Numbered from the stretch's first letter, positions 8,477-37,869 are shown. The stretch is 64,000 nucleotides of DNA from Gammaproteobacteria bacterium (GCA_049591615.1 JBAWFD010000048.1:213-64212); one strand, 5' to 3'. Numbers and translations: made by a program. The notes: generated by a model not told the origin, from the sequence alone.

Positions 8477-8521
8477 ACGTTTTTTAGGATGAATGCTTAT
8501 TAAAAAAGATTAGCATAAACC

Positions 8522-10984
8522 TCAGAAGATATCGGTACCGTTCGCCGGCTTTTTGGCCGGCGCTTTTGGCGGCAAATGGCCGGCCATGAAAAACTCAAAT
8601 ATGGAGCCAGGGTCGCTGGCGCTGACTAATAAACCAGTTTTGGGATCGATACGCGCTTGTACGATGCCGGGCGGTTCCACGAAAGGAACCTGGGGTACAC
8701 CTTGCAGCGCCGGCCCCATGAAATCCATCCATACTGGTAATGCTGCTTTGGCGCCTTGTTCACCATCGCCCAACGATTGGGATGGCTGATCGTTGCCGAC
8801 CCATGCCACCGTAACAATGTCATTGTTATAGCCATCGAACCAGGCATTTGACCAATCATTGGTGGTCCCAGTCTTGCCGGCCAGATCAGAACGGTCCAGC
8901 GCCTGGGCGGAGGCGCCGGTGCCGTACTTGATCACATCCTGCAGCATGCTGGTTATGAGCCAAGCGTTCTGTGGAGTGATTGCCTGTGGGGCGTATCGCG
9001 GCATTGGAGGCGGCACGGGCATGCCCGCTGCAGCGGATGTTATGGCGGTCGGGACCGTGGTCGGTGTAGAAATGTTTTTGCTGGCATCCAGATTGCAGCT
9101 ATCGCAGGCCACTTCAGGATTAGCCGCATACAGAACCTGGCCGGAACCATCGATGATGCGCTGGATGAAATAGGGCGTGACGCGGAACCCATGGTTGGCA
9201 AACACAGCATAACCGCGCGCCATCTCCAATGGGGTGAGATCGGCACTGCCGAGCGCTAGTGTCAGATTGTTGGGTAATTCGGATGCATCAAAGCCGAATT
9301 TCTGAGCATAGTTGATGGCATAACCCACGCCAATGCTTTGCAAGACACGGATTGATGCCAGGTTAAGGGAGTGTGCCAGCGCCAGCCGCAAGCGTGTCGG
9401 GCCGCTAAAATCCTGTTCATAATTGTTGGGTCGCCAAACATTGGCGAATGCTGGATCCTGAACCACGACTGGGGCATCGCTTATGACGCTCGCCGGCGTA
9501 AACCCATCTTCCAGGGCAGCTGAATAATAGAATGGCTTGAATGAAGAACCGGGCTGACGGTGTGCCTGGACAGCGCGATTGAACTTGCTCGCATCGAAGT
9601 CAAAACCGCCCACCAAGGCGGCAATGGCGCCGTCGAATGGATCCATGCATACCAGCGCGCCCTGGGCAGTCGGGACTTGCGACAAGGACCAACTGCCATC
9701 ACTGGCATGATCCAGGTAAACGACGTCGCCGCGCTTGAGGATGTCGGCGGCGATCTTGGGTGCTGCAGCCATAGCATTGACGCTGAGGTAACGCCGCGCC
9801 CATTCCAGTCCGTTCCAGTCGACCGACACCAAACCGGCACCATCCACATAAAACTGTGCACTTCGGTTTTCAACCTTGATCGTTAGGGCCGGAAATAGGC
9901 CGCCTATATGATCACGATTCGATAACAGTTGCGCCCAATCTGCCTGAGTGCCGTCTACGGTCACATTTACGTGCGCGACCGGCCCGCGCCAACCGTGCCG
10001 CTGGTCATAATCCAGCAAGCCTGCGCGTACTGCTTGCACAGCTAGCGGTTGCAGGCGGCTGTCGATGGTGGTGACTACTGAGTAACCGGCGGTGTAGGCA
10101 TCATCGCCATATTTTGCAGTCATGTAATCACGCACCATCTCCGCGAGATAGGGAGCATTCACTTGCGCCGCGGGCTCGTGATATGAAGCCGTCATGGGTG
10201 CGGTCATGGCCTGCTGGTACTCATCCTTGGTGATGTAACCATCGTCCAACATGCGCCCGAGCACATAGCCACGACGCACCAGCGCCCGTTGTTGATTGAT
10301 TAGCGGGTTATCGGTGGATGGCGCCTTGGGCAAGCCCGCGATCATGGCGAGTTGCGGCAAGCTCAGATGACTGACATCGGTGCCGTAATAAACCTCCGCA
10401 GCAGCTCCGACACCATAAGCGCGATTGCCAAGATAGATCTTGTTCAGATATAAATCGAGAATATCTTCCTTGCTGAGTTCACGTTCAATCTTGAGAGCCA
10501 GGAATACCTCTTTCAGTTTGCGTGTATAGGTTTTTTCCCGGGAAAGGAAGAAATTACGTGCCACCTGCATAGTGATGGTGCCGCCACCCTCGGATTTCTG
10601 ACCGGTAAGGACCAGATGGATGGCGGCACGCAAAAGACCGCGCAAGCTCACACCGGGGTGATCCCAATAATGTTCGTCCTCCGCAGCCACGAAGGCGTTC
10701 ACAACCAGCTTGGGTATCTGGTCATAAGTTAGCGGGATTCGTCGTTTTTCACCGAAAGCCGCCAGCAATTGGCCATCGCGGCTATAGACCCTAAGGGGTA
10801 CTTGCAGGTGGATATCCTTGAGCAGGGCTACCGAAGGCAGGCTTGGAGCCACCACTAGATAGGCAATCACCGCACTCAAAACACCCAAGCCAAAGAGTCC
10901 AGCCAGACCGCCAAGCACAACATATAGTGTTTTGAGTGAGCGACGCACGCGTTTCTCGTCTAAATGCTCGGGTGGAACTGCCAT
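8522..10984 (-). CDS. mrcA: Penicillin-binding protein 1A (bifunctional transglycosylase/transpeptidase)
   Basis: It has GT51 motifs (AAEDEHYWDHPG, GGTITMQVARN) and transpeptidase motifs SSFKP and KTGTT. It is divergent from pilM, as in many proteobacteria. Confidence 0.95.
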   Translation of the reverse strand: MAVPPEHLDEKRVRRSLKTLYVVLGGLAGLFGLGVLSAVIAYLVVAPSLPSVALLKDIHLQVPLRVYSRDGQLLAAFGEKRRIPLTYDQIPKLVVNAFVAAEDEHYWDHPGVSLRGLLRAAIHLVLTGQKSEGGGTITMQVARNFFLSREKTYTRKLKEVFLALKIERELSKEDILDLYLNKIYLGNRAYGVGAAAEVYYGTDVSHLSLPQLAMIAGLPKAPSTDNPLINQQRALVRRGYVLGRMLDDGYITKDEYQQAMTAPMTASYHEPAAQVNAPYLAEMVRDYMTAKYGDDAYTAGYSVVTTIDSRLQPLAVQAVRAGLLDYDQRHGWRGPVAHVNVTVDGTQADWAQLLSNRDHIGGLFPALTIKVENRSAQFYVDGAGLVSVDWNGLEWARRYLSVNAMAAAPKIAADILKRGDVVYLDHASDGSWSLSQVPTAQGALVCMDPFDGAIAALVGGFDFDASKFNRAVQAHRQPGSSFKPFYYSAALEDGFTPASVISDAPVVVQDPAFANVWRPNNYEQDFSGPTRLRLALAHSLNLASIRVLQSIGVGYAINYAQKFGFDASELPNNLTLALGSADLTPLEMARGYAVFANHGFRVTPYFIQRIIDGSGQVLYAANPEVACDSCNLDASKNISTPTTVPTAITSAAAGMPVPPPMPRYAPQAITPQNAWLITSMLQDVIKYGTGASAQALDRSDLAGKTGTTNDWSNAWFDGYNNDIVTVAWVGNDQPSQSLGDGEQGAKAALPVWMDFMGPALQGVPQVPFVEPPGIVQARIDPKTGLLVSASDPGSIFEFFMAGHLPPKAPAKKPANGTDIF

Positions 10985-25498: not shown

Positions 25499-26122
25499 TT
25501 ATTTCAACATGGCCACAAGTTTTACCCAAACGTTATTTAGCACTTGGTGCTCGGCGGGGGCCAGGGGATGCATGCCATCCGCCTGCAGCATCTCCCGATG
25601 CTGAGCCACACCCTCCAGCAGGAACGGCACCAGTGGTACGTGATAATCTTTTGCCAGCCGGGGATACACAGCCGCGAAACTTTGGGTGTATTCCGGTCCA
25701 AAATTCGGCGGTAACAATATCCCCAGCAGTAATACTCGTGCGCCAGCCTGCTTCGAGAGCACGATCATTTTCGCGAGGTTTGCCTGCAAGACGGTAACCG
25801 GCAGGCCGCGCAGGCCATCGTTGGCGCCCAGCTCTAGGATCACGATGGCGGGTTTATGCCGGACGAGTTCCACCGGCAGTCGCGTCAACCCCTGGGCCGA
25901 GGTGTCGCCACTGACGCTGGCGTTGACCACGCGGTAAGCATTGGCGCGTGTCTTGAGGCGCTCTGCCAACAACGCTACCCAGCCCTGGGAAGTTTCGATA
26001 CCGTAGGCAGCACTCAAGCTGTCGCCCATCACCAGGATCACGGGTGCTGAAGCCGCTCTGGCCGCGATCGATACAGAACAACACACCAGTCCGATAAGAA
26101 GGAATCGTTTCGATATGCCCAA
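25499..26122 (-). CDS. tesA: SGNH/GDSL arylesterase-thioesterase (TesA-like), secreted
   Basis: GDSLSAAYG, GANDG and DGMHP blocks. The track ORF runs to 26278, but that extension overlaps ybbA. I place the start at TTG 26122, which gives a signal peptide MGISKRFLLIGLVCCSVSIAARA. The exact start is uncertain. Confidence 0.75.
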   Translation of the reverse strand: MGISKRFLLIGLVCCSVSIAARAASAPVILVMGDSLSAAYGIETSQGWVALLAERLKTRANAYRVVNASVSGDTSAQGLTRLPVELVRHKPAIVILELGANDGLRGLPVTVLQANLAKMIVLSKQAGARVLLLGILLPPNFGPEYTQSFAAVYPRLAKDYHVPLVPFLLEGVAQHREMLQADGMHPLAPAEHQVLNNVWVKLVAMLK

Positions 26123-26807
26123 GGAATCTCCTGATACAGCGCTGCTGCGCACCGAGCGTCTGGGCAAACAGGTTACCAGCCCGGATGGCGCACTGACCAT
26201 CCTTGAGGATGTCTCGCTGCTGATCCAACACGGTGAATCGGTGGCCATCGTAGGCCCATCCGGTTCCGGCAAATCCACCTTGCTGGGTCTGATGGCGGGA
26301 CTGGATGTGCCCAGCAGTGGTCGTGTATGGCTGAACGGCGAGAATCTTGGTGCCCTGGACGAAGACAGCCGCGCGGCACGGCGCGCGCGCCAGATCGGAT
26401 TCGTGTTCCAGTCGTTTCATCTACTGCCCGGACTGACGGCGCTGGAAAACGTGATGTTGCCGCTGGAACTGAATACCCAACCGCACCCGGCGCAGAGCGC
26501 ACGCGCGGTGCTGGCGGCCGTGGGTCTCGCGGAACGCGCTGATTATTATCCGCAGAAACTCTCCGGCGGCGAGCAGCAACGCGTGGCTATCGCCCGCGCC
26601 TATGCCGGCGAGCCGCAGATCCTGTTCGCCGACGAACCCACCGGCAACTTGGACGCCACCACCGGCCATCTCATCATCGAGCTGCTGTTTCGCCTGAACC
26701 GCGAGCACCACGCGACTTTGGTATTGGTAACTCACGATACCGAGCTGGCATCGCGCTGTGACCGCATCCTGAATCTGCATGCCGGGCGGCTGGTGCCAAC
26801 CGCATGA
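26115..26807 (+). CDS. ybbA: ABC transporter ATP-binding protein (YbbA/LolD-like)
   Basis: Walker A GPSGSGKST, signature LSGGEQQRV, Walker B ILFADEP. Confidence 0.85.
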   Translation: MPKESPDTALLRTERLGKQVTSPDGALTILEDVSLLIQHGESVAIVGPSGSGKSTLLGLMAGLDVPSSGRVWLNGENLGALDEDSRAARRARQIGFVFQSFHLLPGLTALENVMLPLELNTQPHPAQSARAVLAAVGLAERADYYPQKLSGGEQQRVAIARAYAGEPQILFADEPTGNLDATTGHLIIELLFRLNREHHATLVLVTHDTELASRCDRILNLHAGRLVPTA

Positions 26808-29293
26808 TGCTGCTGCGTCTGTCTCTGCGACAGTTCCAGCGTGGTCTGCGCAGCGGTGAACTGCAGGTCATGGGCCTGGCACTGGCACTGGCGCTGGCAG
26901 CGGTCAGTGCCGTGGGATTTTTCACCGACCGTGTGCATACCGCGGTGCAGGAGCAGGCCGGCGAGAGCTTGGCAGCCGACCTGGTGCTGTCTTCGGGAGA
27001 ACCGCTGGCTGCGCGCTTCACACAGATTGCAGTGAAAGCCGGCGCGCGCACCGCGCAAGTGATGGATTTCCCCACGGTGCTGTTCAACGGCAATAACACG
27101 GTGCTCACGGATATCCATGCTGTCAGTCTGGATTACCCGTTGCGCGGCCGAGTGCGCGTCAGCGAACAGCCCTTCGGTTCAGCACATGTCGTTCATGGTA
27201 TTCCCGCAAGCGGCACTGTGTGGGTGGAAGCGCGTGTGCTCACCACTCTGGGATTTCAAGTGGGCGACACCGTGCAGATCGGTAAACTCAAGGCGCGCAT
27301 CGCAGCTGTGATCGCCTATCTGCCCGATGGTGGGTTCGGATTCTCGTCCCTGGCGCCTAAGGTGCTATTGAACTATGCAGACCTGCCGGCCACCGGCCTG
27401 GTGAACAGCAACTCGCGGGTGCGCTACCGCCTACTCATGGCCGGTAGTCCAGAGGTAATCGCCGGCCTGGAAAAAAATCTGGATAAGCAACTGCCCATCG
27501 GCGTAGAGATTCAGGATGTGCGCGACAGCCGCCGAGAGCTGGTGGAGGCCACCGACAGTGCGCAGCGGTTTCTGGCGCTGGCGGCGCTGGTGAGCGTACT
27601 GGTATCGGCTGTCGCCATGATCCTGGCGGCCCGCCGCTATGCTACCCACTCCACCGATACCGCCGCAGTACTCAAATGCTTGGGGCTTACGCGTAGACGC
27701 GTGCAGACCCTGCTATTGCTGGAGCTTCTGTGGTTGGGAATTTTGGCGGGTACTATCGGCGTGCTAATCGGATTCCTGGCTCAGTACGGTCTGGTGGCGG
27801 CACTCAAGGGTCTGTTGCCGGCTGATCTACCGACCGCCTCGCTTACCCCGGCCCTGTCCGCATTCGGGATCGGCATCGTCCTACTGGTCGGATTTGCGTT
27901 GCCACCACTCATGCGGCTCGGAGACACACCGCCGGCACGCGTGCTACGCCGTGATCTCGTGCCGCCGCCAGTGCGCACCTATGTGATCTATGCGGCTGCG
28001 ATATTCGCCACCCTGGCACTGACCTGGTGGCAGGTGCGAGAACTGCGCCTGACACTCTACGTGCTGCTGGGTCTGGTCATCACGGTCGCCGTGCTGGCAC
28101 TGGGCGCGCTGCTGTTACTGGCAGCGCTCCGGCCTTTGCGTCACGGGGCCGGCATCGGCTGGCGTTACGGCCTCGCCAACCTCAACCGTCACCGGCGCGA
28201 TGCGCTCATCCAGATGGTGGCCTTCGGCATCGGTATCATGGTGCTGTTGCTGCTGGGACTGGTACGCGGCAACCTGCTGTCGAGTTGGCGCACCTCGCTG
28301 CCGGCAGATGCACCCAACCAGTTCATCATCAACATCCAGCCCGATGAGCGCAGTACCGTACAGAATTTCTTCACCAGCCACGAGCTTCCTGCGCCCGCGC
28401 TCTATCCCATCGTGCGCGCCCGTCTCACCGCCATCAACGGCGTGGATGTCAGCCAGATCCATTACGCCGATCCGCGTGCCCAGCACATGCTCAACCGTGA
28501 GGCCAATCTGAGCTGGTCGGAAAACCTGCCCGCCGCTAACACCATCACCGCGGGCCACTGGTGGAATGCTACAGAAGCAAAACAACCGCTCGCTTCACTG
28601 GAAGAAGATTTCGCCAAGCAGCTCAAGTTGAATGTCGGCGATAGATTGACTTTCGATATCGGCGGTACGCCCACTGTCGTAAGCATCGCCAGCCTGCGCA
28701 ACGTCCGCTGGGATTCATTCCAGCCGAACTTCTTCGTGGAGCTTTCCCCTGGCGCACTCTCCGGCTATCCCGCCACCTGGATCACCAGCGTGTATCTGCC
28801 GCCGCAGAAAGCCGTCATATTGGCAAACCTGGTGCGACAACTGCCGTCCCTCACGATCTTCGATGTGGATGCCATCCTCCAGCAGGTGCGGCAACTCATG
28901 GATCAGGCTTCGCTGGCAGTGGAATACGTATTCCTGTTCACCCTCGGCGCCGGGATCGTGGTGCTGCTGGCCGCGGTGCAGGCCACCCGCGACGAGCGCC
29001 GCTTCGAAGCGGCCGTACTGCGCGCCTTGGGCGCCTCGCGCCGTCTACTACGCTCCGCCACGGCGACCGAATATGCGGCTTTGGGGTTCGTGGCTGGGCT
29101 ACTGGGCGCCCTGACCGCCTCCCTAGTAGCTTGGTTGCTCGCCAGCCGCGTGTTCTCGCTGGCCTATCACCCGGATTGGCGTGTATGGGCCACTGGCATC
29201 ATCGCCGGCACATTGATCGTCGGTTTGAGCGGTTTATTGGCGAATCGGCGCATCCTGAATACGCCGCCGGTGGAGACATTACGCGAGACTTAG
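26804..29293 (+). CDS. ybbP: FtsX-family ABC transporter permease (YbbP-like, two FtsX domains)
   Basis: 829 aa, multi-TM, coupled to ybbA by an ATGA overlap. The conserved tesA/ybbA/ybbP arrangement supports the call. Confidence 0.85.
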   Translation: MMLLRLSLRQFQRGLRSGELQVMGLALALALAAVSAVGFFTDRVHTAVQEQAGESLAADLVLSSGEPLAARFTQIAVKAGARTAQVMDFPTVLFNGNNTVLTDIHAVSLDYPLRGRVRVSEQPFGSAHVVHGIPASGTVWVEARVLTTLGFQVGDTVQIGKLKARIAAVIAYLPDGGFGFSSLAPKVLLNYADLPATGLVNSNSRVRYRLLMAGSPEVIAGLEKNLDKQLPIGVEIQDVRDSRRELVEATDSAQRFLALAALVSVLVSAVAMILAARRYATHSTDTAAVLKCLGLTRRRVQTLLLLELLWLGILAGTIGVLIGFLAQYGLVAALKGLLPADLPTASLTPALSAFGIGIVLLVGFALPPLMRLGDTPPARVLRRDLVPPPVRTYVIYAAAIFATLALTWWQVRELRLTLYVLLGLVITVAVLALGALLLLAALRPLRHGAGIGWRYGLANLNRHRRDALIQMVAFGIGIMVLLLLGLVRGNLLSSWRTSLPADAPNQFIINIQPDERSTVQNFFTSHELPAPALYPIVRARLTAINGVDVSQIHYADPRAQHMLNREANLSWSENLPAANTITAGHWWNATEAKQPLASLEEDFAKQLKLNVGDRLTFDIGGTPTVVSIASLRNVRWDSFQPNFFVELSPGALSGYPATWITSVYLPPQKAVILANLVRQLPSLTIFDVDAILQQVRQLMDQASLAVEYVFLFTLGAGIVVLLAAVQATRDERRFEAAVLRALGASRRLLRSATATEYAALGFVAGLLGALTASLVAWLLASRVFSLAYHPDWRVWATGIIAGTLIVGLSGLLANRRILNTPPVETLRET
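28994..29293 (+). repeat. Direct repeat copy A (the functional 3' end of ybbP)
   Basis: It aligns by hand to 30348-30637 at roughly three quarters nucleotide identity. Both copies end at a stop codon. The longest identical run is the 17 nt TTGATCGTCGGTTTGAG at 29213-29229. Confidence 0.85.
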
Positions 29294-30347
29294 CGTGGAG
29301 CAGTCACGAAATCACGCTTTACAGTCAAAGGCCGCTTCGGCACCCTACGGCGGTCATTCGGGAAGTCCAACCTAAATGCTCTTTCGACTCCGAGAAACGA
29401 ATAAAATGCTGACCGAAAAAAAACAATACTCCTTCCTCTGGGAAGATTATGAGTTGATCGATGCAGGCGGTGGGAAAAAACTCGAGCGCTTTGGCAAAAC
29501 AATATTGATTCGCCCCGAGTTACAAGCTTATTTTAAACCCGTAATGCCTCTTGCCAAGTGGAACGAAATGGCAAATTGGGAATTTGTGGAAAGTTCAAAA
29601 AGCAAAGGCGCTTGGAAAAACCTTCAAAACGATGAAAACGCTTCGCGTCAATGGGACATTAAATTTGAAGGTTTGCATTTCAATTTAAAATTGACCAAAT
29701 ACAAACACGTTGGACTTTTTCCTGAGCAAGCTTCCAATTGGAGATTCATAAAGGAAAACATCAATAACGATCATAAATTTCTTAATCTTTTTGCCTATAC
29801 AGGTGCAGCCTCCATTATTGCGAATAAACAAGGCGCCGAGGTATATCACGTTGATGCTGTTCAACAAGTGATCACCTGGGCGAAAGAAAACATGTTATCC
29901 AGTAACTTATCTGGAATAAAATGGGTCTTGGAAGATGCTTTAAAATTTGCGCAACGCGAAGTCAAAAGGGCCAACCAGTACAACGGAATCATCATGGATC
30001 CTCCTGCTTATGGCTTGGGTGCGAAAGGCGAAAAATGGATTTTAGAAGACAAATTACCCAAACTTCTAGAGGCAGGTTCAAAACTATTAAACAAAAGTGG
30101 CTTCTTGATCGTCAATACTTATTCTCCAAAACTGACCTTGAAATTGCTCGAAAGAATGGCCCTTCGCCATTTTGATCCACTAGACACCACTCTTTCAGAG
30201 TTATGGATAAAAGCCAAAACTGGCAAAGCTTTATTTTTTGGCAATATTCTGAAAATTCGGAAAAAATAAAACATACCACGGCAGATTCAACAATGAATTG
30301 CGACACTTGGAGGAGGCGAAAAAGACCTCGCTCGGTGTTTTGAATCC
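29294..30347. mobile_element. Putative horizontally acquired cassette (one gene, no recombinase) between the two ybbP 3'-end copies
   Basis: The segment is bracketed by diverged direct repeats. Its coding part is visibly AT-rich: sampled 60-nt lines gave 32% and 45% GC, against high-50s GC in the flanks. Confidence 0.45.
29406..30269 (+). CDS. Class I SAM-dependent methyltransferase, RlmI/RlmK-like catalytic domain without PUA domain
   Basis: MLTEKKQYSFLWEDYELIDAGGGKKLERFG...FAYTGAAS...IIMDPPAYG (DPPxxG-type motif IV). I prefer ATG 29406 over the track start at 29376. Confidence 0.8.
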   Translation: MLTEKKQYSFLWEDYELIDAGGGKKLERFGKTILIRPELQAYFKPVMPLAKWNEMANWEFVESSKSKGAWKNLQNDENASRQWDIKFEGLHFNLKLTKYKHVGLFPEQASNWRFIKENINNDHKFLNLFAYTGAASIIANKQGAEVYHVDAVQQVITWAKENMLSSNLSGIKWVLEDALKFAQREVKRANQYNGIIMDPPAYGLGAKGEKWILEDKLPKLLEAGSKLLNKSGFLIVNTYSPKLTLKLLERMALRHFDPLDTTLSELWIKAKTGKALFFGNILKIRKK

Positions 30348-30637
30348 GAGCGTTCTTCGAGGCTGCGGTATTGGGCGCCTTGCGACGACCGCTGTGTTCG
30401 GCCACCACTGCTGAATATGCTGCCCTGGGATGTTTGGCCGGACTGCTAGGCGCCCTGGCCGCTTCCCTGGTGGCCCGGCTGCTCGCAACCCGCGTGTTCT
30501 CGTCGCCCTATTACACCGATTGGCGCGTGTGTTTCATCGGCATTATCGCCGGAACCTTGATCGTCGGTTTGAGTAGATTACTGGTTAACCGGCGCATCCT
30601 GAACACGCCACCAGTTGAGACATTACGGACAACTTAA
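30344..30637 (+). pseudogene. Orphan 3' fragment of a ybbP-type permease gene (last ~97 codons, open frame but no 5' part)
   Basis: The translation IRAFFEAAVLGALRRPLCSATTAEYAALGCLAGLLGALAASLVARLL...NRRILNTPPVETLRTT parallels the YbbP C-terminus RRFEAAVLRALGASRRLLRSATATEYAALGFVAGLLGALTASLVAWLL...NRRILNTPPVETLRET. Copy B has a 3-codon gap. The track lists it as ORF 30371..30637. Confidence 0.8.
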
Positions 30638-30881
30638 ATTCGGATACGAAACGCAGTTAATACCTACAGCCACATTTCCGCTTCCGACTGCGATTTCAAC
30701 GGATTGATGCGGCCCTTCAAGCCACACTCTGGCACACATCGATGATGTATGCAGTTGCGGTGTCCATTTCATTGCCATGAGCTGGGAACTGGTCTCTCAT
30801 CTGAACCCAGCAATTGGTCCGTTGTTCTCGCAGCACGGGCCAAAGTGGCATTAACGAATGGGAAGTAGCGCGTATAATAGG

Positions 30882-31574
30882 TTACGCAAACTGCCGGCGT
30901 ACCACTCCTCCGAGCACATGAACGATTTCTTGCAGATGCTCTTCATCGAGTTCCTTCCAACGGAGCCGCCGCAGCAAAGCATGGCGTCCGGTGCAGAAGA
31001 TAAATACTTGCCCAAGCACCATCTGAACTTCAATTCCCACGCGACTATCGTCGGGGTGCAAGTCGCGTAATGCTCCGACCAATTGCGAGTACGTCGCGCT
31101 CACGGGTGCCATGAAACCCGTATACAGGATATCAAAGGCTTCAGTCGGCTGTATCTGTTCACGCATAATGAATAACCCGATGGAGACACGATCAGGAGAC
31201 AGACAGACAGAACGGATCATGCTCGTCATGAGCGCAATCAATAGTTCCACAAGCTCAGGCTTATTGGATTTCACCTGCCCAAATCGGCTATTGATTTCTT
31301 CAGTAGCCTGTAAAAACTCCGCACCGATCATCGAGACAATTTGTCGTGCTACGGCAAGGTAGGTCCCGTCTTTCGAGCCGAAATGGTAGGGGATTGCCGC
31401 CAGATTCACGCCGGCTTCGCGAGCCAGCGCCCGAGTCGATACACCCTCATGCCCATGGCGGCCAAACAACCGAAGCCCCGCGCTCAGCAGGCAGCGTCGT
31501 GTCTCGACGCCGCGCACATCGGTGGTTTCGGGAACAAAGTGGCGTTTGCTCGTTCGATGGCGCTTCAGGATCAT
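30882..31574 (-). CDS. TetR/AcrR family transcriptional regulator
   Basis: HTH sequence STRALAREAGVNLAAIPYHFGSKDG. The track ORF begins at TTG 31625. I prefer ATG 31574 (MILKRHR...), which leaves a 113-bp divergent promoter region. Confidence 0.8.
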   Translation of the reverse strand: MILKRHRTSKRHFVPETTDVRGVETRRCLLSAGLRLFGRHGHEGVSTRALAREAGVNLAAIPYHFGSKDGTYLAVARQIVSMIGAEFLQATEEINSRFGQVKSNKPELVELLIALMTSMIRSVCLSPDRVSIGLFIMREQIQPTEAFDILYTGFMAPVSATYSQLVGALRDLHPDDSRVGIEVQMVLGQVFIFCTGRHALLRRLRWKELDEEHLQEIVHVLGGVVRRQFA

Positions 31575-31612
31575 GATCTTGAAAGTAGGTTCATCAAAAT
31601 TTAATCTAACAG

Positions 31613-31648
31613 TTGACTTAATCAATCGAATGAATATTATACTATTCA
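31613..31648 (+). promoter_or_regulatory. Candidate sigma70 promoter (TTGACT-16 nt-TATTAT) overlapped by inverted repeat TGAATA-N6-TATTCA (31631-31648), a possible TetR operator
   Basis: Read from the sequence. It sits between the divergent TetR gene and the efflux operon. Confidence 0.35.
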
Positions 31649-31687
31649 GGAACCATATACAAATTACTTCTCGGAAGGAGCGCTGCT

Positions 31688-33241
31688 ATGATGCGCCAAT
31701 CCTGGTATCCCCGTTTCAGGCTGGCCGTAACGATCCTTTGTGCGGCCACTCTGACGTTGTCAGCCTGTGCGGCCGGACCCGATTTTCAGCCACCGGCCGC
31801 CCCGCCGGCCACGGCCGTGGCTGCACCTGCAAGCACGGCCACGCAAGCGACTCCGGTGCCCGGCGGTGGATCCCAGTGGTTCACACCTGGCATGCGGATT
31901 CAAGCGGACTGGTACCGATTATTCCAGTCTCCTGCCTTGGATGTATTGATTGCTAAGGCGCTTGAGAACAACCCCTCAATCGAAGCTGCCCAGGCGCATC
32001 TCCGCCAGGCGCGCCACGAGCTCGAAGCCGCCGACGGGGTTCGCTATCCCAGCGTCGATGCCCAAATCGGCGTCACCCGGGAGCGCAACAACGGCGCCAT
32101 CCTCGGGCTTGGGGGCCCGCAATTAGCCAATGTCTTCAATCTATACACGGCGGGGCTGTCACTCAATTACGACTTGGATCTCTTCGGCGCCAATCAGCGC
32201 GGCATTGAAGCGCAATCCGCCCGGGTCGAGTCTCAGCACTATGCCCTGCTCGGCACGTACCTGACCTTGATTGACAACCTGGTGGTGACCGCACTTAACG
32301 CGGCGGATATTGAAGACCGAATTACCGCCACGCGCCACATCATTACCAACGAGCAAGCCCAACTCAAACTGATTGCGGGGCTGGAACAGGCGGGCACCGT
32401 CTCGCATGCGGATGTCCTGCGCGCCGAGGCTCAGCTTGCCACTGTCAAAGCAACACTGCCGCCTCTTAGGCAAGCACTCGCTGTTCAGCACACGCAACTT
32501 GCGATCCTGTCCGGTATTGATCCAGGCGAATTCGCACCGCCCGCATTAAGTCTGAAGGACTTCACCTTGCCCCGCACCCTGCCCTACAGCGTCCCGTCTG
32601 AATTGGTACGCCAACGGCCCGACATTCTCGAAGCTGAGAGTGACTTGCATGTGGCGAGCGCTGAGGTGGGTGTTGCGACCGCTAACCTCTATCCTCATTT
32701 GACCTTGAGCGCGAGTTATGGTGTACAGGGCAATGACCGCGGCACGCTTTTCGATGCGCCGTCCCGGGTCTGGTCTATCGGCGGGTCTTTGCTGGCTCCG
32801 CTGTTCCATGGTGAAGCCCTGCATGCGCAACGAAATGCGGCAGTCGATGCTTATGACGCAGCCTACGCACAATACCGGGCGACGGTGTTGCAGGCCTTCG
32901 GTCAAGTCACTAATACTTTGAATGCCATTGACAACGATGCAGACGCGCTGCGCTCACAGCACGACGCACTGGTGGCCGCCCAGGCGAGCCGTCAGCTGGT
33001 TGAGGCCCAATACCGCGTCGGCGCCGCGAACTACCTCGATGTTCTGACGACCGAACAACAATACGATCAAACGGATATTGCCTATCTCGCCGCCTTCGGT
33101 GAGCGCTATGTGGATACTGCTGAGTTATACCAGACCCTGGGCGGTGGCTGGTGGAATGCCAAACCTAAGGAATCGATCGCAAACGTTGCGACCACAGTGT
33201 CGAACTCCACGCGGCCAGCGGCACGCTTACCTCAATCCTGA
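31688..33241 (+). CDS. Efflux outer-membrane lipoprotein, NodT/OprM family
   Basis: It has a lipobox (TLSAC) and two OEP repeats. It is the first gene of the OMF-MFP-MFS operon. Confidence 0.9.
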   Translation: MMRQSWYPRFRLAVTILCAATLTLSACAAGPDFQPPAAPPATAVAAPASTATQATPVPGGGSQWFTPGMRIQADWYRLFQSPALDVLIAKALENNPSIEAAQAHLRQARHELEAADGVRYPSVDAQIGVTRERNNGAILGLGGPQLANVFNLYTAGLSLNYDLDLFGANQRGIEAQSARVESQHYALLGTYLTLIDNLVVTALNAADIEDRITATRHIITNEQAQLKLIAGLEQAGTVSHADVLRAEAQLATVKATLPPLRQALAVQHTQLAILSGIDPGEFAPPALSLKDFTLPRTLPYSVPSELVRQRPDILEAESDLHVASAEVGVATANLYPHLTLSASYGVQGNDRGTLFDAPSRVWSIGGSLLAPLFHGEALHAQRNAAVDAYDAAYAQYRATVLQAFGQVTNTLNAIDNDADALRSQHDALVAAQASRQLVEAQYRVGAANYLDVLTTEQQYDQTDIAYLAAFGERYVDTAELYQTLGGGWWNAKPKESIANVATTVSNSTRPAARLPQS

Positions 33242-33285
33242 CGCCATCAAAGCTGGCAGATCTTCGGCGCATACGGGAGGTTTCT

Positions 33286-34506
33286 ATGTCTGAATCTCTG
33301 AAAGACACGACCAACGCATCTGCAAATGCGCCAGTGAACAACAACACTGCAAGGCGGCGCAAACCGCTGCTGATCCTCGCGGCCGTCGTGCTTTTGGCCA
33401 TCATCAGCTACGGGCTGTACTGGGCGGTGTGGGGACGGTTTCACACTGACACCGACGACGCGTACGTAAATGGGAATATCGTAACCGTGGCACCCCAGGT
33501 CGCTGGCACCGTCATACAGATTGATGCGGACGACACGCAACTTATAAATCGGGGTGATCCCCTAGTCCAGCTCGATCCTACCGATGCCAGAATCGCGCTG
33601 CAAAAAGCAGAAGCGAGTCTCGGTCAAGCGGTGCGGCAAGTACGCAGCCTGTATGCTAATGCCCGTGAACTGCACTCCGCCGTTCATGATCGCCAGATCG
33701 CGCTCCAGCAGGCACTCGCCGACTATCGGCGTGCCGAGGATCTGAAAAAGATCCGCGGCATTTCGACCCAAGATTTCCAGCACGCCCAGACCGCTTATCA
33801 ATCAGCCGAATCGGCGCTGAACCAAACCCAACATCAGCTCTCCGCAACTCTGGCGGCGGTTTCCAATACAACGCTCGAAACCCATCCAGCGGTGAAACTC
33901 GCTGAAGCCCAATTGCGCGATGCCTACCTTGCACTGAAGCGGACTACGGTGCTGTCGCCGGTTACCGGCTATGTGGCTAACCGCGCGGTGCAGCTGGGTC
34001 AACAGGTGACGCCCGGCACGGCGATGCTCGCGGTGATTCCGTTAAACGAAGTATGGGTGGACGCCAACTTCAAAGAAACCGAACTCGCCCACGTCCGCAT
34101 CGGCCAGCCGGTGCGTCTCGAATCCGATTTGTACGGCGGCTCGGCCGTATATCACGGCCATGTGGTGGGACTGGCTCCAGGAACCGGGAATGCTTTCGCA
34201 CTCCTGCCGCCGCAAAATGCGACCGGAAACTGGATCAAGGTGGTGCAGCGATTGCCGGTGCGCATTGCACTCGATCCCAAGGAATTCGTTCAACATCCGC
34301 TGCGTCTAGGACTCACCATGAACGTAAGTGTGAACACCCGTGATCAAGGTGGCCCGCTGCTGGCTCCCACGCCGGTCACCCGTCCGGATTACACGACTAA
34401 CGTCTATGAGAACCAGAGCACCGGCGTACAAGCCTTGATTCAAACCATCATCCGCCGCAATGCATCCACTGTCGCGCGGACCCGCTCGGTAGCCCGCCCT
34501 CACTAG
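33286..34506 (+). CDS. emrA: HlyD/EmrA-family membrane fusion protein
   Basis: It has an N-terminal TM segment, TDDAYVNGN, a coiled coil and a beta-barrel C-terminus typical of EmrA. Confidence 0.9.
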   Translation: MSESLKDTTNASANAPVNNNTARRRKPLLILAAVVLLAIISYGLYWAVWGRFHTDTDDAYVNGNIVTVAPQVAGTVIQIDADDTQLINRGDPLVQLDPTDARIALQKAEASLGQAVRQVRSLYANARELHSAVHDRQIALQQALADYRRAEDLKKIRGISTQDFQHAQTAYQSAESALNQTQHQLSATLAAVSNTTLETHPAVKLAEAQLRDAYLALKRTTVLSPVTGYVANRAVQLGQQVTPGTAMLAVIPLNEVWVDANFKETELAHVRIGQPVRLESDLYGGSAVYHGHVVGLAPGTGNAFALLPPQNATGNWIKVVQRLPVRIALDPKEFVQHPLRLGLTMNVSVNTRDQGGPLLAPTPVTRPDYTTNVYENQSTGVQALIQTIIRRNASTVARTRSVARPH

Positions 34507-34518
34507 CAACCGTGACCT

Positions 34519-36120
34519 ATGAGTACCGATAATCTCAGTGTAGCGGCAATACCCGCGCCGCGCGCCCAGATTAACCCGTGGCTGGTGGCCCCGGTAGTGG
34601 CCATGGCCGCCTTCATGGAGGTGCTGGACATCTCCATCGCCAACGTCGCGCTGCAACACATCGCCGGATCGTTGGCCGCGTCCGTCGATGAATCCACGTG
34701 GGTGCTCACCTCCTATACGGTCACCAATGTGATCGTGGTTCCCATCAGCGGCTGGCTTTCATCCGTCATGGGACGCAAGCGTTATTTCCTGGCGAGTATT
34801 GCTGGATTCACCGTAAGTTCCATGCTCTGTGGGCTTGCGCCGACCCTGGGGATCCTAGTGCTGTTCCGCGCTCTCCAAGGCATTTCCGGCGGCGGTTTGC
34901 AGCCAGCGTCCCAAGCGATTCTCTCAGATGCCTTCCCGCCTGCAAAACGCGGTGTTGCCTTCGCTATGTACGGCCTGGCGGTGGTATTCGCACCCGCCAT
35001 TGGTCCCACGCTCGGTGGCTGGATTACAGATCACATCGGATGGCGCTGGGTGTTTCTTATCAATATCCCGGTGGGAGTTATCGTGTTCACTCTGGTAGAA
35101 GCTCTGGTGCAGGATCCCGAGTACATGGTCAAGGCGCGCGCGGAGCGACGCCGACAAGGTCTTAGGGTCGATTACATCGGCTTTAGCCTTTTGGCTATCG
35201 GACTCGCCTGCATGCAGTTCGTGCTTGATCGGGGCCAACAGGACGACTGGTTCGCCTCCCACCTGATCCTAATTCTGGGCTCCGTGAGCGCAATCGGTCT
35301 AATCGCCTTCGTGATCTGGGAACTGAACGAACGCGATCCGTTAGTGGACTTGCACCTCTTACGAAATCGCAATTTTGCCATCGCCAATCTCCAGATGCTC
35401 GCCTTGGGCGCAGTGTTGCTCGCGAGCATTGTGCTGATACCGATCTATGTGCAGGAGCTCTTGGGTTACACCGCTACGGATGCCGGTCTGGTGCTAACGC
35501 CGGGTGGGCTTGCCCTGGTTCTTTTTATGCCCATCATGGGCCAGCTGGTGACAAAAATCGACGTGCGTGCGCTGATTGGATTCGGGTTTTTACTCGCAGG
35601 CTTATCGATGTTGTACGCGGTGAATTTCGACACCACCACAGCCTACAGCACGATCATGTGGAATCGAGTGATATTCTCCATCTCGCTCGCATTTCTGTTT
35701 ATCCCCATCAACGTCGCGGCCTATGCAGGACTGCCGATCGAAAAATCGAGCAATGCCTCTGCGCTGATCAATATGTCACGCAACTTGGGTAGCAGTATCG
35801 GCATATCACTCGCAACCGCGTGGCTATCGCGCCGTGCCCAGTACCATCAAAGCCTCCTGGTGCAGCAGGTTAACAACTTCAATCCCAATTATCACCAAGC
35901 GGTGCAGGGCTTGTCGCATCTGTTCGCTAGCGTATCCCAGGGTGCATCACAGGCGATGGCCAAGGCTAATGGCGCGATTTACGAGACGATCGTCCAGCAA
36001 GCCAACATGCTCGCATTCCTCGACGATTTCAAAGCTTTGGCGATCTGTGCGCTGGCTTTGGTCCCCCTGGCATTCCTGCTTAAAAAAGCCAGTGCAGCAG
36101 GTCCAACGGCAAGTCACTGA
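34519..36120 (+). CDS. emrB: DHA2-family (14-TM) MFS multidrug exporter, EmrB-like
   Basis: FMEVLDISIANVALQHIAGSL, GWLSSVMGRKRYF and ALQGISGGGL are MFS DHA2 motifs. Confidence 0.9.
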   Translation: MSTDNLSVAAIPAPRAQINPWLVAPVVAMAAFMEVLDISIANVALQHIAGSLAASVDESTWVLTSYTVTNVIVVPISGWLSSVMGRKRYFLASIAGFTVSSMLCGLAPTLGILVLFRALQGISGGGLQPASQAILSDAFPPAKRGVAFAMYGLAVVFAPAIGPTLGGWITDHIGWRWVFLINIPVGVIVFTLVEALVQDPEYMVKARAERRRQGLRVDYIGFSLLAIGLACMQFVLDRGQQDDWFASHLILILGSVSAIGLIAFVIWELNERDPLVDLHLLRNRNFAIANLQMLALGAVLLASIVLIPIYVQELLGYTATDAGLVLTPGGLALVLFMPIMGQLVTKIDVRALIGFGFLLAGLSMLYAVNFDTTTAYSTIMWNRVIFSISLAFLFIPINVAAYAGLPIEKSSNASALINMSRNLGSSIGISLATAWLSRRAQYHQSLLVQQVNNFNPNYHQAVQGLSHLFASVSQGASQAMAKANGAIYETIVQQANMLAFLDDFKALAICALALVPLAFLLKKASAAGPTASH

Positions 36121-36373: not shown

Positions 36374-36763
36374 CTAAAACAGGGAGATCAGAAGCAATAT
36401 CAATCCCACCAAACTCACGGCCCACGCCAGGGTACGCAGGTAGATGATGCCGGCCATGTAGACGAACAGATAAACCAGCCTCGCCCAGAAATACAGTTGC
36501 GCACCCCAAAGGGTCAGGCTGTCGTGATGATTCAAGACGGCCCCCAATAGGATCAGGGCTGCGAAGAACGGAAATGTCTCACGGAAGTTATGAAACGCCC
36601 GAACGGTGCGCCCACCGAGACCTTCCAGGGGTGGCATGATCTTATCGCGGTTACTAAACGCCCAGCTCATCCCGTATTTTTGTGTATTAAAGGTCGCAGC
36701 CAATAACATTTGTACCAACCCCAACACCACGGTGAACAACAGCATCTGCATTTCAGTATTCAT
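36374..36763 (-). CDS. MAPEG family membrane protein
   Basis: 129 aa with 4 TM segments. RAFHNFRETFPFF is MAPEG-like. Confidence 0.7.
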   Translation of the reverse strand: MNTEMQMLLFTVVLGLVQMLLAATFNTQKYGMSWAFSNRDKIMPPLEGLGGRTVRAFHNFRETFPFFAALILLGAVLNHHDSLTLWGAQLYFWARLVYLFVYMAGIIYLRTLAWAVSLVGLILLLISLF

Positions 36764-36912: not shown

Positions 36913-37869
36913 TTAGGCGACGCGATTGCGTTTCTCGCCTTTCTTGAAAGCTTCAATATTCAATGCCACCTCAGTGACCACGCGCTGACGTGCTTCACGC
37001 GTAGCCCAGGCGATGTGTGGCGTTATGATGAGATTTGGGATTCCGGGAGTTAATAAAGGATTGCCGTGCACTGGCGGTTCTTCGGAGAGCACGTCGATTC
37101 CCGCACCACCCAGCTTGCCGGCCTTGAGTGCATCCGCCAAGGCCTGTTCATCGACGATGCCGCCACGCGCGCAGTTGATGAGCAGTGCATCGGGCTTCAT
37201 GAGCGCCAACTCAGCCCCGCCGATGAGATCGCGCGTGTCCCGCAACAGCGGTACGTGGATGGTGAGCGCGTCCACCTGCGTCAGCAGTTCTTTAAGCGGT
37301 AGCCGGCCGGGGCGCTTATCCTCGGCATTGCGCGCGCCGATTAGTACCTGCATCCCAAAAGCTTCCGCCACTTTGGCCACCGCCTGGCCGATATCGCCGT
37401 ATCCCAGGATGCCGAGCTTCTTTCCGGCAAGTTCGCGGATCGGGTAATCCAGTAAGGTGAACTGCGGGGCGCGCCGCCATGCGTCCTGCTGCAAGAGCGC
37501 TTCATATTCCTTGAGATGCTGGGTGAGGCTCAGGATAAAGGCGAAGACCTGCTGCACCACCGACTGGGTCGAATAGGCTGGCACATTGCACACGACGATG
37601 CCGCGCTGCCGCGCCGTTTCCAGATCCACGTTGTTGGTGCCGGTGGCCGCCACGCACACCAGGCGCACGCGCTTTAACTTCGACAGGACTGGCGCCGCGA
37701 GTTTTACTTTGTTGGTGATCACCACTTCGGCATCACCCACGTGCGCACTCACCTGGTCCGTCGAAGTGACGTCGAAACAGGTCAATCCCGCCAACGCTTG
37801 GCGCAGCGGCGCCAGCTCCACGTCACCCTGGTGACTGACGGTATCCAGATCCAGAAATACGCCACGCAT
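36913..37869 (-). CDS. D-isomer-specific 2-hydroxyacid dehydrogenase (glycerate/hydroxypyruvate reductase-like)
   Basis: NAD-binding motif GILGYGDIGQAVA and catalytic region INCARGGIVDE...ITPHIAW. Confidence 0.85.
   Translation of the reverse strand: MRGVFLDLDTVSHQGDVELAPLRQALAGLTCFDVTSTDQVSAHVGDAEVVITNKVKLAAPVLSKLKRVRLVCVAATGTNNVDLETARQRGIVVCNVPAYSTQSVVQQVFAFILSLTQHLKEYEALLQQDAWRRAPQFTLLDYPIRELAGKKLGILGYGDIGQAVAKVAEAFGMQVLIGARNAEDKRPGRLPLKELLTQVDALTIHVPLLRDTRDLIGGAELALMKPDALLINCARGGIVDEQALADALKAGKLGGAGIDVLSEEPPVHGNPLLTPGIPNLIITPHIAWATREARQRVVTEVALNIEAFKKGEKRNRVA

Follow-up and report, generated by a model that had tools for sequence, protein, structure and literature searches.

Phage 21 and e14 bring a phage-borne replacement 3' end to icd, and do so with their own integrase at one fixed core site. 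Bacterial chromosomes are also reported to contain integration hotspots flanked by core genes. Arrays of "orphan" gene ends, similar to those of the rhs genes, occur at cdiA and mafB loci. At rhs itself, C-terminal displacement leaves core fragments of variable length, and a circular intermediate has been suggested for the rhs tips (Jackson et al., 2009, PMC2935791). In Vibrio cholerae, effector genes of the type VI secretion system (T6SS) are displaced by incoming effector-immunity modules, for which homology-facilitated illegitimate recombination (HFIR) was proposed (Kirchberger et al., 2017, PMC5361080). Here we describe a methyltransferase gene bracketed by two diverged copies of the 3' end of ybbP, a permease gene, in a stretch of 64,000 nt from a Gammaproteobacteria bacterium; the whole stretch is referred to as the window, and the related loci compared with it carry L-numbers. 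We read the bracket as the trace left by a homology-anchored, additive integration of an HFIR-like type ("C-terminal displacement") in a hypervariable hotspot between ybbP and a dehydrogenase gene, and give this reading a probability of roughly 0.6.

Two diverged ends of ybbP around a low-GC gene

The end attached to ybbP (copy A) and the downstream one (copy B; Table 1) form a direct repeat, and the window has no other that reaches 70 nt. Ungapped, the repeat comprises 266 nt (29027-29292 and 30371-30636) with 76% identity and a spacing of 1344. Local alignment gave 211 identical positions of 278 (76%), and a protein-guided alignment placed the homology at 29003-29293 versus 30356-30637, with one in-frame gap of three codons (9 nt). 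These values are in agreement with a previous sequence-only reading, which had the last ~300 nt of ybbP recurring on the same strand at about 75% identity with a 9-nt gap. That reading also had both copies ending at a stop codon, an open frame in copy B and a bias of the differences to third codon positions, all of which were borne out by computation. Copy A ends with TAG (29291-29293) and copy B with TAA (30635-30637), the frame of copy B stays open over 30344-30637, with hits to Pfam FtsX (6e-7) and to NCBIfam YbbP (5.7e-7), and the differences are distributed as 16/9/44 over codon positions 1, 2 and 3. By tblastn with YbbP, copy B was matched at 76% amino acid identity over 96 residues (E = 4e-23), and no second ybbP paralogue was present in the window, a full-length one having been considered earlier as a possible source of copy B. 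A protein search with copy B gave, besides the window's own open reading frame (ORF), a nearest match of about 67%; this search was insensitive and missed copy A too. No further displaced-end scars were found in the 64 kb. An independent Logan assembly (L041) was 100% identical across 27064-31402, both junctions included, so the bracket is not an assembly artefact.

The longest identical run between the copies is the 17 nt TTGATCGTCGGTTTGAG (29213-29229 and 30557-30573). It had been pointed out before as the longest run, correctly, and also as a candidate crossover core, a role for which no support was obtained; it lies in the part of the gene that is most conserved in all relatives, and the proposed course needs no crossover there.

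The proportions of synonymous (pS) and nonsynonymous (pN) differences between the copies are 0.56 and 0.116, respectively, and the ratio of nonsynonymous to synonymous divergence (dN/dS) is 0.12; for an in-situ duplicate with one copy decaying a ratio near 0.5 would be expected. Because the differences are mostly synonymous, both copies must have had a past as functional ends of the gene, each in a lineage of its own, in line with the earlier proposal that copy B stems from a once-functional orthologous end and not from a recent duplication in place. The synonymous distance between A and B is as large as that of either copy to relatives in other genomes. Against the relatives, pN of copy A is at the level of a functional gene (0.02-0.10), and that of copy B is in excess versus every relative (0.09-0.18); copy B has in addition the three-codon deletion and radical replacements, e.g., W to R. 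GC content at third codon positions is 0.72 in copy A, like in the remaining ybbP, and 0.645 in copy B. Overall GC content is 62% for ybbP, 59% for copy B, 40% for the insert and 39% for the methyltransferase ORF, as could be anticipated from the low-GC single gene noticed between the copies in the sequence-only reading. A tandem duplication of the ybbP end in situ, with divergence and a later insertion of the methyltransferase gene, would also give same-strand direct repeats and a pseudogene-like fragment in place of copy B. We regard it as extremely improbable, since the values above (and a ratio of only 0.02 in L045) correspond to divergence mostly under purifying selection on both copies, since the B copies are often nearer to the ybbP ends of other genomes than to their own, and since the sequence following A is of another subtype than that following B, each subtype being common to different relatives.

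These following sequences are versions of a motif of ~60 nt, U, found after the ybbP stop codon in many relatives. Both were recognized by nhmmer, U(A) at 29296-29366 with E = 5.7e-11 and U(B) with E = 2.5e-10, and the earlier view that the sequences after the two stops are unrelated was given up. U(A) resembles the versions in L002, L008, L042, and L049, and U(B) those in L017, L001-B, and L048-B; the identity of U(B) to the sequence right after the ybbP stop in L017 is 82% over 50 nt, and to L001-B 77%. In direct pairwise comparison U(A) and U(B) are 50% identical, a value which is by itself non-significant (284 of 2000 shuffles). As U is present after both stops, the duplicated unit is the ybbP end together with U, and the foreign segment is 29353-30355, with its left edge ~59 nt beyond the ybbP stop (~29353, not 29294). 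U was seen directly after ybbP in the window, L003, L004, L008, L017, L042, L045, L048, and L049, in two or three subtypes with the consensus TGGA..AG..ACG...TACAG...GCT..CGACC, and is a candidate element of the 3' untranslated region or a terminator region. The nhmmer profile hit the loci only directly after ybbP ends, and no match was obtained in Rfam. A function of U as dispersed recombination site was considered and rejected, since it is confined to that position; judged from its distribution, U is best read as native ybbP-downstream sequence.

The right joint could be fixed at 30356-30365, because matches to the methyltransferase segment in three loci with another genomic context (L043, L044, and L129) span 29352-30365; the joint had previously been put at 30347/30348. 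In L043 and L044 the similarity of the cargo homologues ends with ...TTCGAGGCTG. The corresponding nucleotides of ybbP are TTCGAAGCGG, so that 8 of 10 nucleotides in the joint are shared, within a wider partial match at 30348-30365.

For the window the following course of events is proposed. The donor would have been a related gammaproteobacterium with ybbP, the ~60-nt U and then the low-GC methyltransferase gene, the DNA of which presumably entered an ancestor of this genome. The left part of the incoming DNA would have undergone homologous recombination with ybbP at a point before codon ~733, and the right end of that DNA, just beyond the methyltransferase gene, would have been joined illegitimately to the recipient ybbP ~282 nt before the stop, at TTCGAGGCTG / TTCGAAGCGG. 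With the complete end brought by the donor piece, ybbP would stay intact as copy A with U(A), and the old end of the recipient, copy B with U(B), would be pushed downstream and have been decaying since. The insert would need no recombinase of its own. Such an event would be harmless and could persist, because the donor DNA carries the whole gene end; the replacement end is indeed present, since ybbP is complete, with 829 aa, and its end is conserved. HFIR had already been offered as one of two options by the sequence-only reading, and it is the best fit to the joint microhomology, the differing fragment starts in relatives and the absence of a recombinase in the inserts. The data are compatible with linear as well as with circular incoming DNA.

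The direction of the replacement was best seen in L039. Over 1728 nt of the ybbP body of this genome (L019, same bin; the link between L019 and L039 rests on binning of metagenome-assembled genomes) the identity to L033 is 95.9%; it amounts to 95.2% in the first 229 nt of L039 and falls to 81% in the attached last 133 nt. Residues specific to L033 (ATRHVLSAPP) persist in the displaced fragment, whose identity to L033 is 83.5-87.5%. The drop of identity and the L033-like fragment indicate that the attached end arrived with the cargo, and that the former native end is to be seen in the downstream fragment. A comparison of L045 and L048, with 96% identity in the attached ends, 98-99% in the cargo, 88% in the displaced fragments, and different U subtypes, points to the same polarity. 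By analogy with L039 and L033, and considering the signs of decay in copy B, the latter would be the displaced native end in the window, and copy A would have been imported with the cargo. A sliding-window search for a mosaic breakpoint in ybbP, as had been suggested earlier, gave no clean breakpoint against L042 or against nine other ybbP genes.

Recurrence of the scar in related genomes

In total 130 loci were gathered by scans of genome and metagenome contigs and by exact-protein look-ups. In the clade of the window, which consists of uncultured Gammaproteobacteria, a dehydrogenase gene lies downstream of ybbP in around a dozen relatives, the distance being between 41 nt and several kb. The interval between the two genes is 41 nt in L007, 59 nt in L018 and up to 7.6 kb, as in the window, and its content is different in nearly every genome. 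At ybbP the same scar was found in four or more instances that differ in cargo, and a further instance concerns another gene. Only where extra genes directly follow ybbP was a second fragment of its 3' end present. These genes are an ABC-2 ATPase and permease in L001 (fragment of ~165 nt with an in-frame stop), a ParE-type toxin with antitoxin in L039 (~110-135 nt), BrnT/BrnA in L045, L046, and L048 (~150 nt, still intact-looking) as well as in L050 (truncated), and the methyltransferase of the window in L042, where the fragment is as in the window, with deletions. Values of dN/dS between attached and displaced ends were 0.02 in L045, 0.11 in L048, 0.17 in L001, and 0.18 in L039. In insert-free relatives there is a single ybbP end, and after it comes either U (L003, L004, L008, L017, and L049) or, within 41-59 nt, the dehydrogenase gene (L007 and L018). 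Tandem copies in genomes lacking the methyltransferase, which the sequence-only reading had named as a counter-indication, were not seen there, and none of ~80 more distant ybbP loci contained a second fragment. The same process, in our reading, added the other cargo to the rapidly turning-over interval between ybbP and the dehydrogenase gene.

The displaced fragments start at columns ~40, 171, 181-187, and ~190-208 of the ybbP alignment (A4), corresponding to four independent events; the boundaries differ, and there is no crossover position shared among the independent insertions. The fragment of L042 (1650-1871) shares derived bases with copy B of the window and belongs to the same event; it has lost the 3' tail of the cargo and 36 nt of ybbP, the 36-nt deletion lying between short TGGCC direct repeats. 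In L050 (9710-9802) the fragment is cut on its 3' side as well, is frameshifted and borders directly on the MAPEG region, so the scar is eroded further here. L008 has a ~110-nt insertion between the ybbP stop and U (8491-8603), which resembles a miniature inverted-repeat element; its terminal inverted repeats are 15 nt long (ACGTCTAACAAAATG ... CATTTTGTTAGACG), and CTTAG appears to be duplicated at the target.

Outside ybbP, a GAF-domain gene in L043 and L044 shows the same displaced-end pattern around a DsrE-like gene. The order in L043 (1-1112), L044 (51-1411), and L129 (240-791) is GAF gene, DsrE-like gene on the opposite strand, decayed GAF copy, and then the methyltransferase segment. The decayed copy comprises the last ~75 codons, with two in-frame stops and 70% identity.

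Neither integrase nor transposase was found inside the bracketed inserts of the window, L001, L039, L045, L048, and L050. In the window, ORF content and a repeat check agreed with the previous statement that no integrase, transposase or terminal inverted repeat lies between the copies; there were no terminal inverted repeats at 29353/30355, and the "duplication" formed by A and B is ~290 nt long and diverged. A transposon or insertion sequence was therefore rejected as a candidate, there being no transposase ORF, terminal inverted repeats or short target-site duplication. No plasmid match was obtained, phage records gave only ~40% amino acid matches to the methyltransferase, and no ybbP end was found on viral contigs, so that the other option of the sequence-only reading, an element inserting itself while supplying a replacement end, was not upheld. 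An IntI1-like tyrosine recombinase was absent from the whole window. No GTTRRRY box of an attC site was visible by eye, and the fold of 30262-30375 (z = -1.5) had no compensatory pairs among three homologues. An integron cassette, an idea prompted by a remnant of intI in L048, was rejected for the window, as intI, attC-like boxes and an attC-like fold are lacking there. The remnant itself (L048:1314-1655, minus strand) is a degraded integron integrase (TIGR02249, 3e-33) with N- and C-terminal parts fused. It is located directly after the displaced ybbP fragment and U, outside the bracket and facing away, and is followed by a weak HEPN-domain ORF (L048:1807-2331). The interval between ybbP and the MAPEG gene may once have held a chromosomal integron in this clade.

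Several observations weigh against the proposed homology-anchored integration. Joint microhomology is documented for a single joint only, that of the window. For the window we infer both the polarity and the left breakpoint, the relatives compared being too distant for direct mapping. Saturation (pS 0.38-0.70, with ~80 synonymous sites) affects the synonymous distances of both copies to relatives, and these do not differ significantly between A and B. In L039 the left breakpoint lies just 15-110 nt upstream of the fragment start, which is nearer than a random crossover in the anchor would suggest. The fragment starts of three of the four ybbP events lie within ~35 nt of a conserved, partly palindromic block, CTGGCTGCTCGCCAG, and a site-preferring process could also give such clustering. 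We read the clustering as strand exchange halting at the last well-conserved block between partners diverged by 15-25%, with the joint forming nearby. The block is found in the window at 29136-29150 (CTCGCCAGCCGCGTG; ...CTGGCTGCTCGCCAGCCGC... in ybbP of relatives), and the starts near to it are those of L001, the BrnT/BrnA group, and L039. Further, synonymous divergence (dS) of the methyltransferase gene between the window (29406-30269) and L042 (786-1646) is 0.24, and that of the adjacent ybbP 0.55-0.64. Since it is lower than that of ybbP between the same genomes, the segment was moved or homogenised among lineages after the split of the hosts. The attached end and the cargo may thus not share one simple history, and a later homologous exchange would be needed. 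Nor does this reading account for the place of the methyltransferase segment after U in the donor.

The short distance in L039 would be accounted for by a single-crossover (Campbell-type) integration of a circularised donor fragment carrying the ybbP 3' segment and the methyltransferase gene. The circle would have been formed in the donor by an illegitimate or repeat-mediated join, and one crossover with the resident ybbP end would duplicate the homologous segment around the cargo. This gives the same layout and variable fragment lengths (PMC2935791), and the joint microhomology could mark the closure of the circle. We consider it an unlikely alternative. It requires a circular intermediate, which found no support here, and it predicts a shared, donor-derived 5' part of B; the B copies of L045 and L048 differ from the first nucleotides on, with cargo that is 98-99% identical, and the crossovers would each time need to fall in the first few homologous bases.

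The clustered starts would also suit a remnant of a site-specific integrative element, either of the type of phage 21 and e14 at icd or an integrase-less, cis-mobilisable one, whose integrase was lost or acted in trans and whose attachment site would take in the 3' end of ybbP. Elements of this kind are marked by the replacement end that they bring for the target gene, examples being those at icd (phage 21, e14) and at fda (ICESt/CIME), and an integron-integrase remnant does lie beside a displaced fragment in L048. We consider this origin still less likely. No integrase is contained in any of the five cargo types that a duplicated gene end brackets (ybbP in four cases, the GAF-domain gene in the fifth), the start points of the fragments vary between events, and the remnant in L048 stands outside its bracket and faces away from it; the absence of an IntI1-like tyrosine recombinase, terminal inverted repeats, an attC-like fold, plasmid matches and viral ybbP ends described above speaks against it as well. 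A still bolder possibility, to which we attach very little weight, is that the ybbP 3' end of this clade is a dedicated capture site for small recombinase-less cargo units, which would carry a ybbP "homing arm" and insert beside CTGGCTGCTCGCCAG with the help of a trans-acting factor; this factor could be linked to the degraded integron of L048. If true, this would amount to a cassette system guided by homology arms, different from integrons as well as from integrative elements.

Gene content of the window and the methyltransferase cargo

The features of the bracket and its surroundings are listed in Table 1. The permease matches NCBIfam YbbP with 536 bits (1e-160), which is under the curated cutoff of 999, and it is flanked by an ABC ATPase gene and a divergent GDSL lipase gene, in an order that we take to be the tesA-ybbA-ybbP order of E. 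coli. On profile match and synteny it is best named ybbP-like. Its amino acid identity to relatives L001-L009 is 79-91%. Most of the hotspot interval of the window is occupied by the genes for a regulator, an outer-membrane factor, an adaptor and a probable pump (30882-36120). The first three had no tblastn match in 40 related loci, from which a separate gain in the lineage of the window is concluded.

Table 1. Features of the window around the two ybbP ends.
Feature	Position	Strand	Basis or remark
GDSL/tesA-like lipase	25499-26278	-	Pfam Lipase_GDSL_2 9e-27; divergent, upstream of ybbP
ybbA-like ABC ATPase	26115-26807	+	Pfam ABC_tran 1e-34
ybbP-like permease, intact, 829 aa	26804-29293	+	Two FtsX and a MacB periplasmic domain (Pfam FtsX, MacB_PCD)
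Copy A, attached ybbP 3' end, last 96 codons and stop	29003-29293	+	Repeat with copy B
U(A), "type 1" ybbP-downstream motif	29294-29352	+	Alignment; nhmmer
Low-GC cargo segment	29353-30355	+	One gene
Class I S-adenosylmethionine-dependent methyltransferase ORF	29406-30269	+	Pfam Methyltrans_SAM 1e-14; alternative ATG 29376
Putative illegitimate joint in microhomology patch	30356-30365	+	Switch from cargo to ybbP sequence
Copy B, probably displaced ybbP 3' end, 93 codons and stop, decaying fragment	30356-30637	+	Frame open from 30344
U(B), "type 2" ybbP-downstream motif	30638-30706	+	nhmmer; similarity to L017, L001-B
TetR/CecR-like regulator	30882-31625	-	Pfam CecR_C, TetR_N
Outer-membrane factor	31688-33241	+	Named from reading the translation
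HlyD-type adaptor	33286-34506	+	Named from reading the translation
Multi-pass membrane protein, 533 aa, probably MFS/EmrB-type pump	34519-36120	+	Named by eye from the translation
MAPEG-family gene	36374-36763	-	91% aa identity to L001; conserved right flank
2-hydroxyacid dehydrogenase	36913-37869	-	81% aa identity to L001; conserved right flank

The methyltransferase gene is the only substantial ORF between the copies. The closest solved structure is PDB 2IGT (2e-49), of unknown function, and the family is very large, with named members in Flavobacteriia, Crocinitomicaceae, and Methylococcales. The closest homologue outside the clade (72%) is found on a contig of 40.6% GC. In the other genomic context (L043, L044, and L129) the segment 29352-30365 recurs at 88-90% identity. 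Copies of the gene from either context are near-equidistant, with dS of 0.24-0.30 (0.28-0.30 for those of the other context), and dN/dS among the copies is 0.19-0.30, i.e., the gene is constrained. Promoter and terminator scans of the insert gave nothing above chance.

Comparison with known systems

Most accessory genes in hotspots bear no trace of their arrival, and here the displaced end, the joint microhomology and the synonymous divergence record the event. If the proposed course is right, one homologous crossover in a core gene and one illegitimate joint added a foreign gene and left the core gene unbroken. The recurrence suggests that HFIR, a rare process known from laboratory transformation, measurably aids gene gain in these uncultured Gammaproteobacteria from soil and freshwater. 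For searches in any genome we suggest the following signature: behind an intact gene its own 3' end recurs in diverged form, and dN/dS between the two ends is well below 1.

Like rhs, the ybbP loci have an intact gene followed by a dissociated 3' fragment with a variable length of conserved gene sequence, and in both the incoming new end with its downstream genes would shunt the old end downstream, with no dedicated recombinase in the insert. In rhs, however, the incoming tip brings another toxin domain, and toxin and immunity genes make up the payload, whereas the ends of ybbP, a housekeeping permease gene, are orthologous and functionally equivalent and the payload is unrelated cargo (methyltransferase, toxin-antitoxin pairs, transporter). 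There is also one displaced fragment per ybbP locus, and not strings of fragments as in rhs.

The T6SS loci of Vibrio are alike in the conserved homologous anchor upstream, the illegitimate join of a non-homologous end and the old downstream material, which is retained at a shifted position; among strains, the structure is then passed on through homologous recombination. Their arrays are explained by selection to keep immunity genes, while the retained ybbP fragment is without evident use. Beyond the Vibrio case, ybbP adds the joint microhomology and a test based on the signature of selection.

With phage 21 and e14 the ybbP loci share a target kept intact by a diverged copy of its 3' end, an old end that is left as a downstream pseudogene, and differences that are largely synonymous; unlike these phages, the ybbP inserts are without integrase and their joints vary. 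As in hotspots flanked by core genes, the accessory genes between ybbP and the MAPEG and dehydrogenase genes differ in nearly every relative and are mostly free of mobility genes. For such hotspots scarless double homologous recombination is usually assumed, and the ybbP scar, in contrast, records a one-sided homologous event. What we describe is a known kind of event at a new locus, and not a new kind of mobile element.

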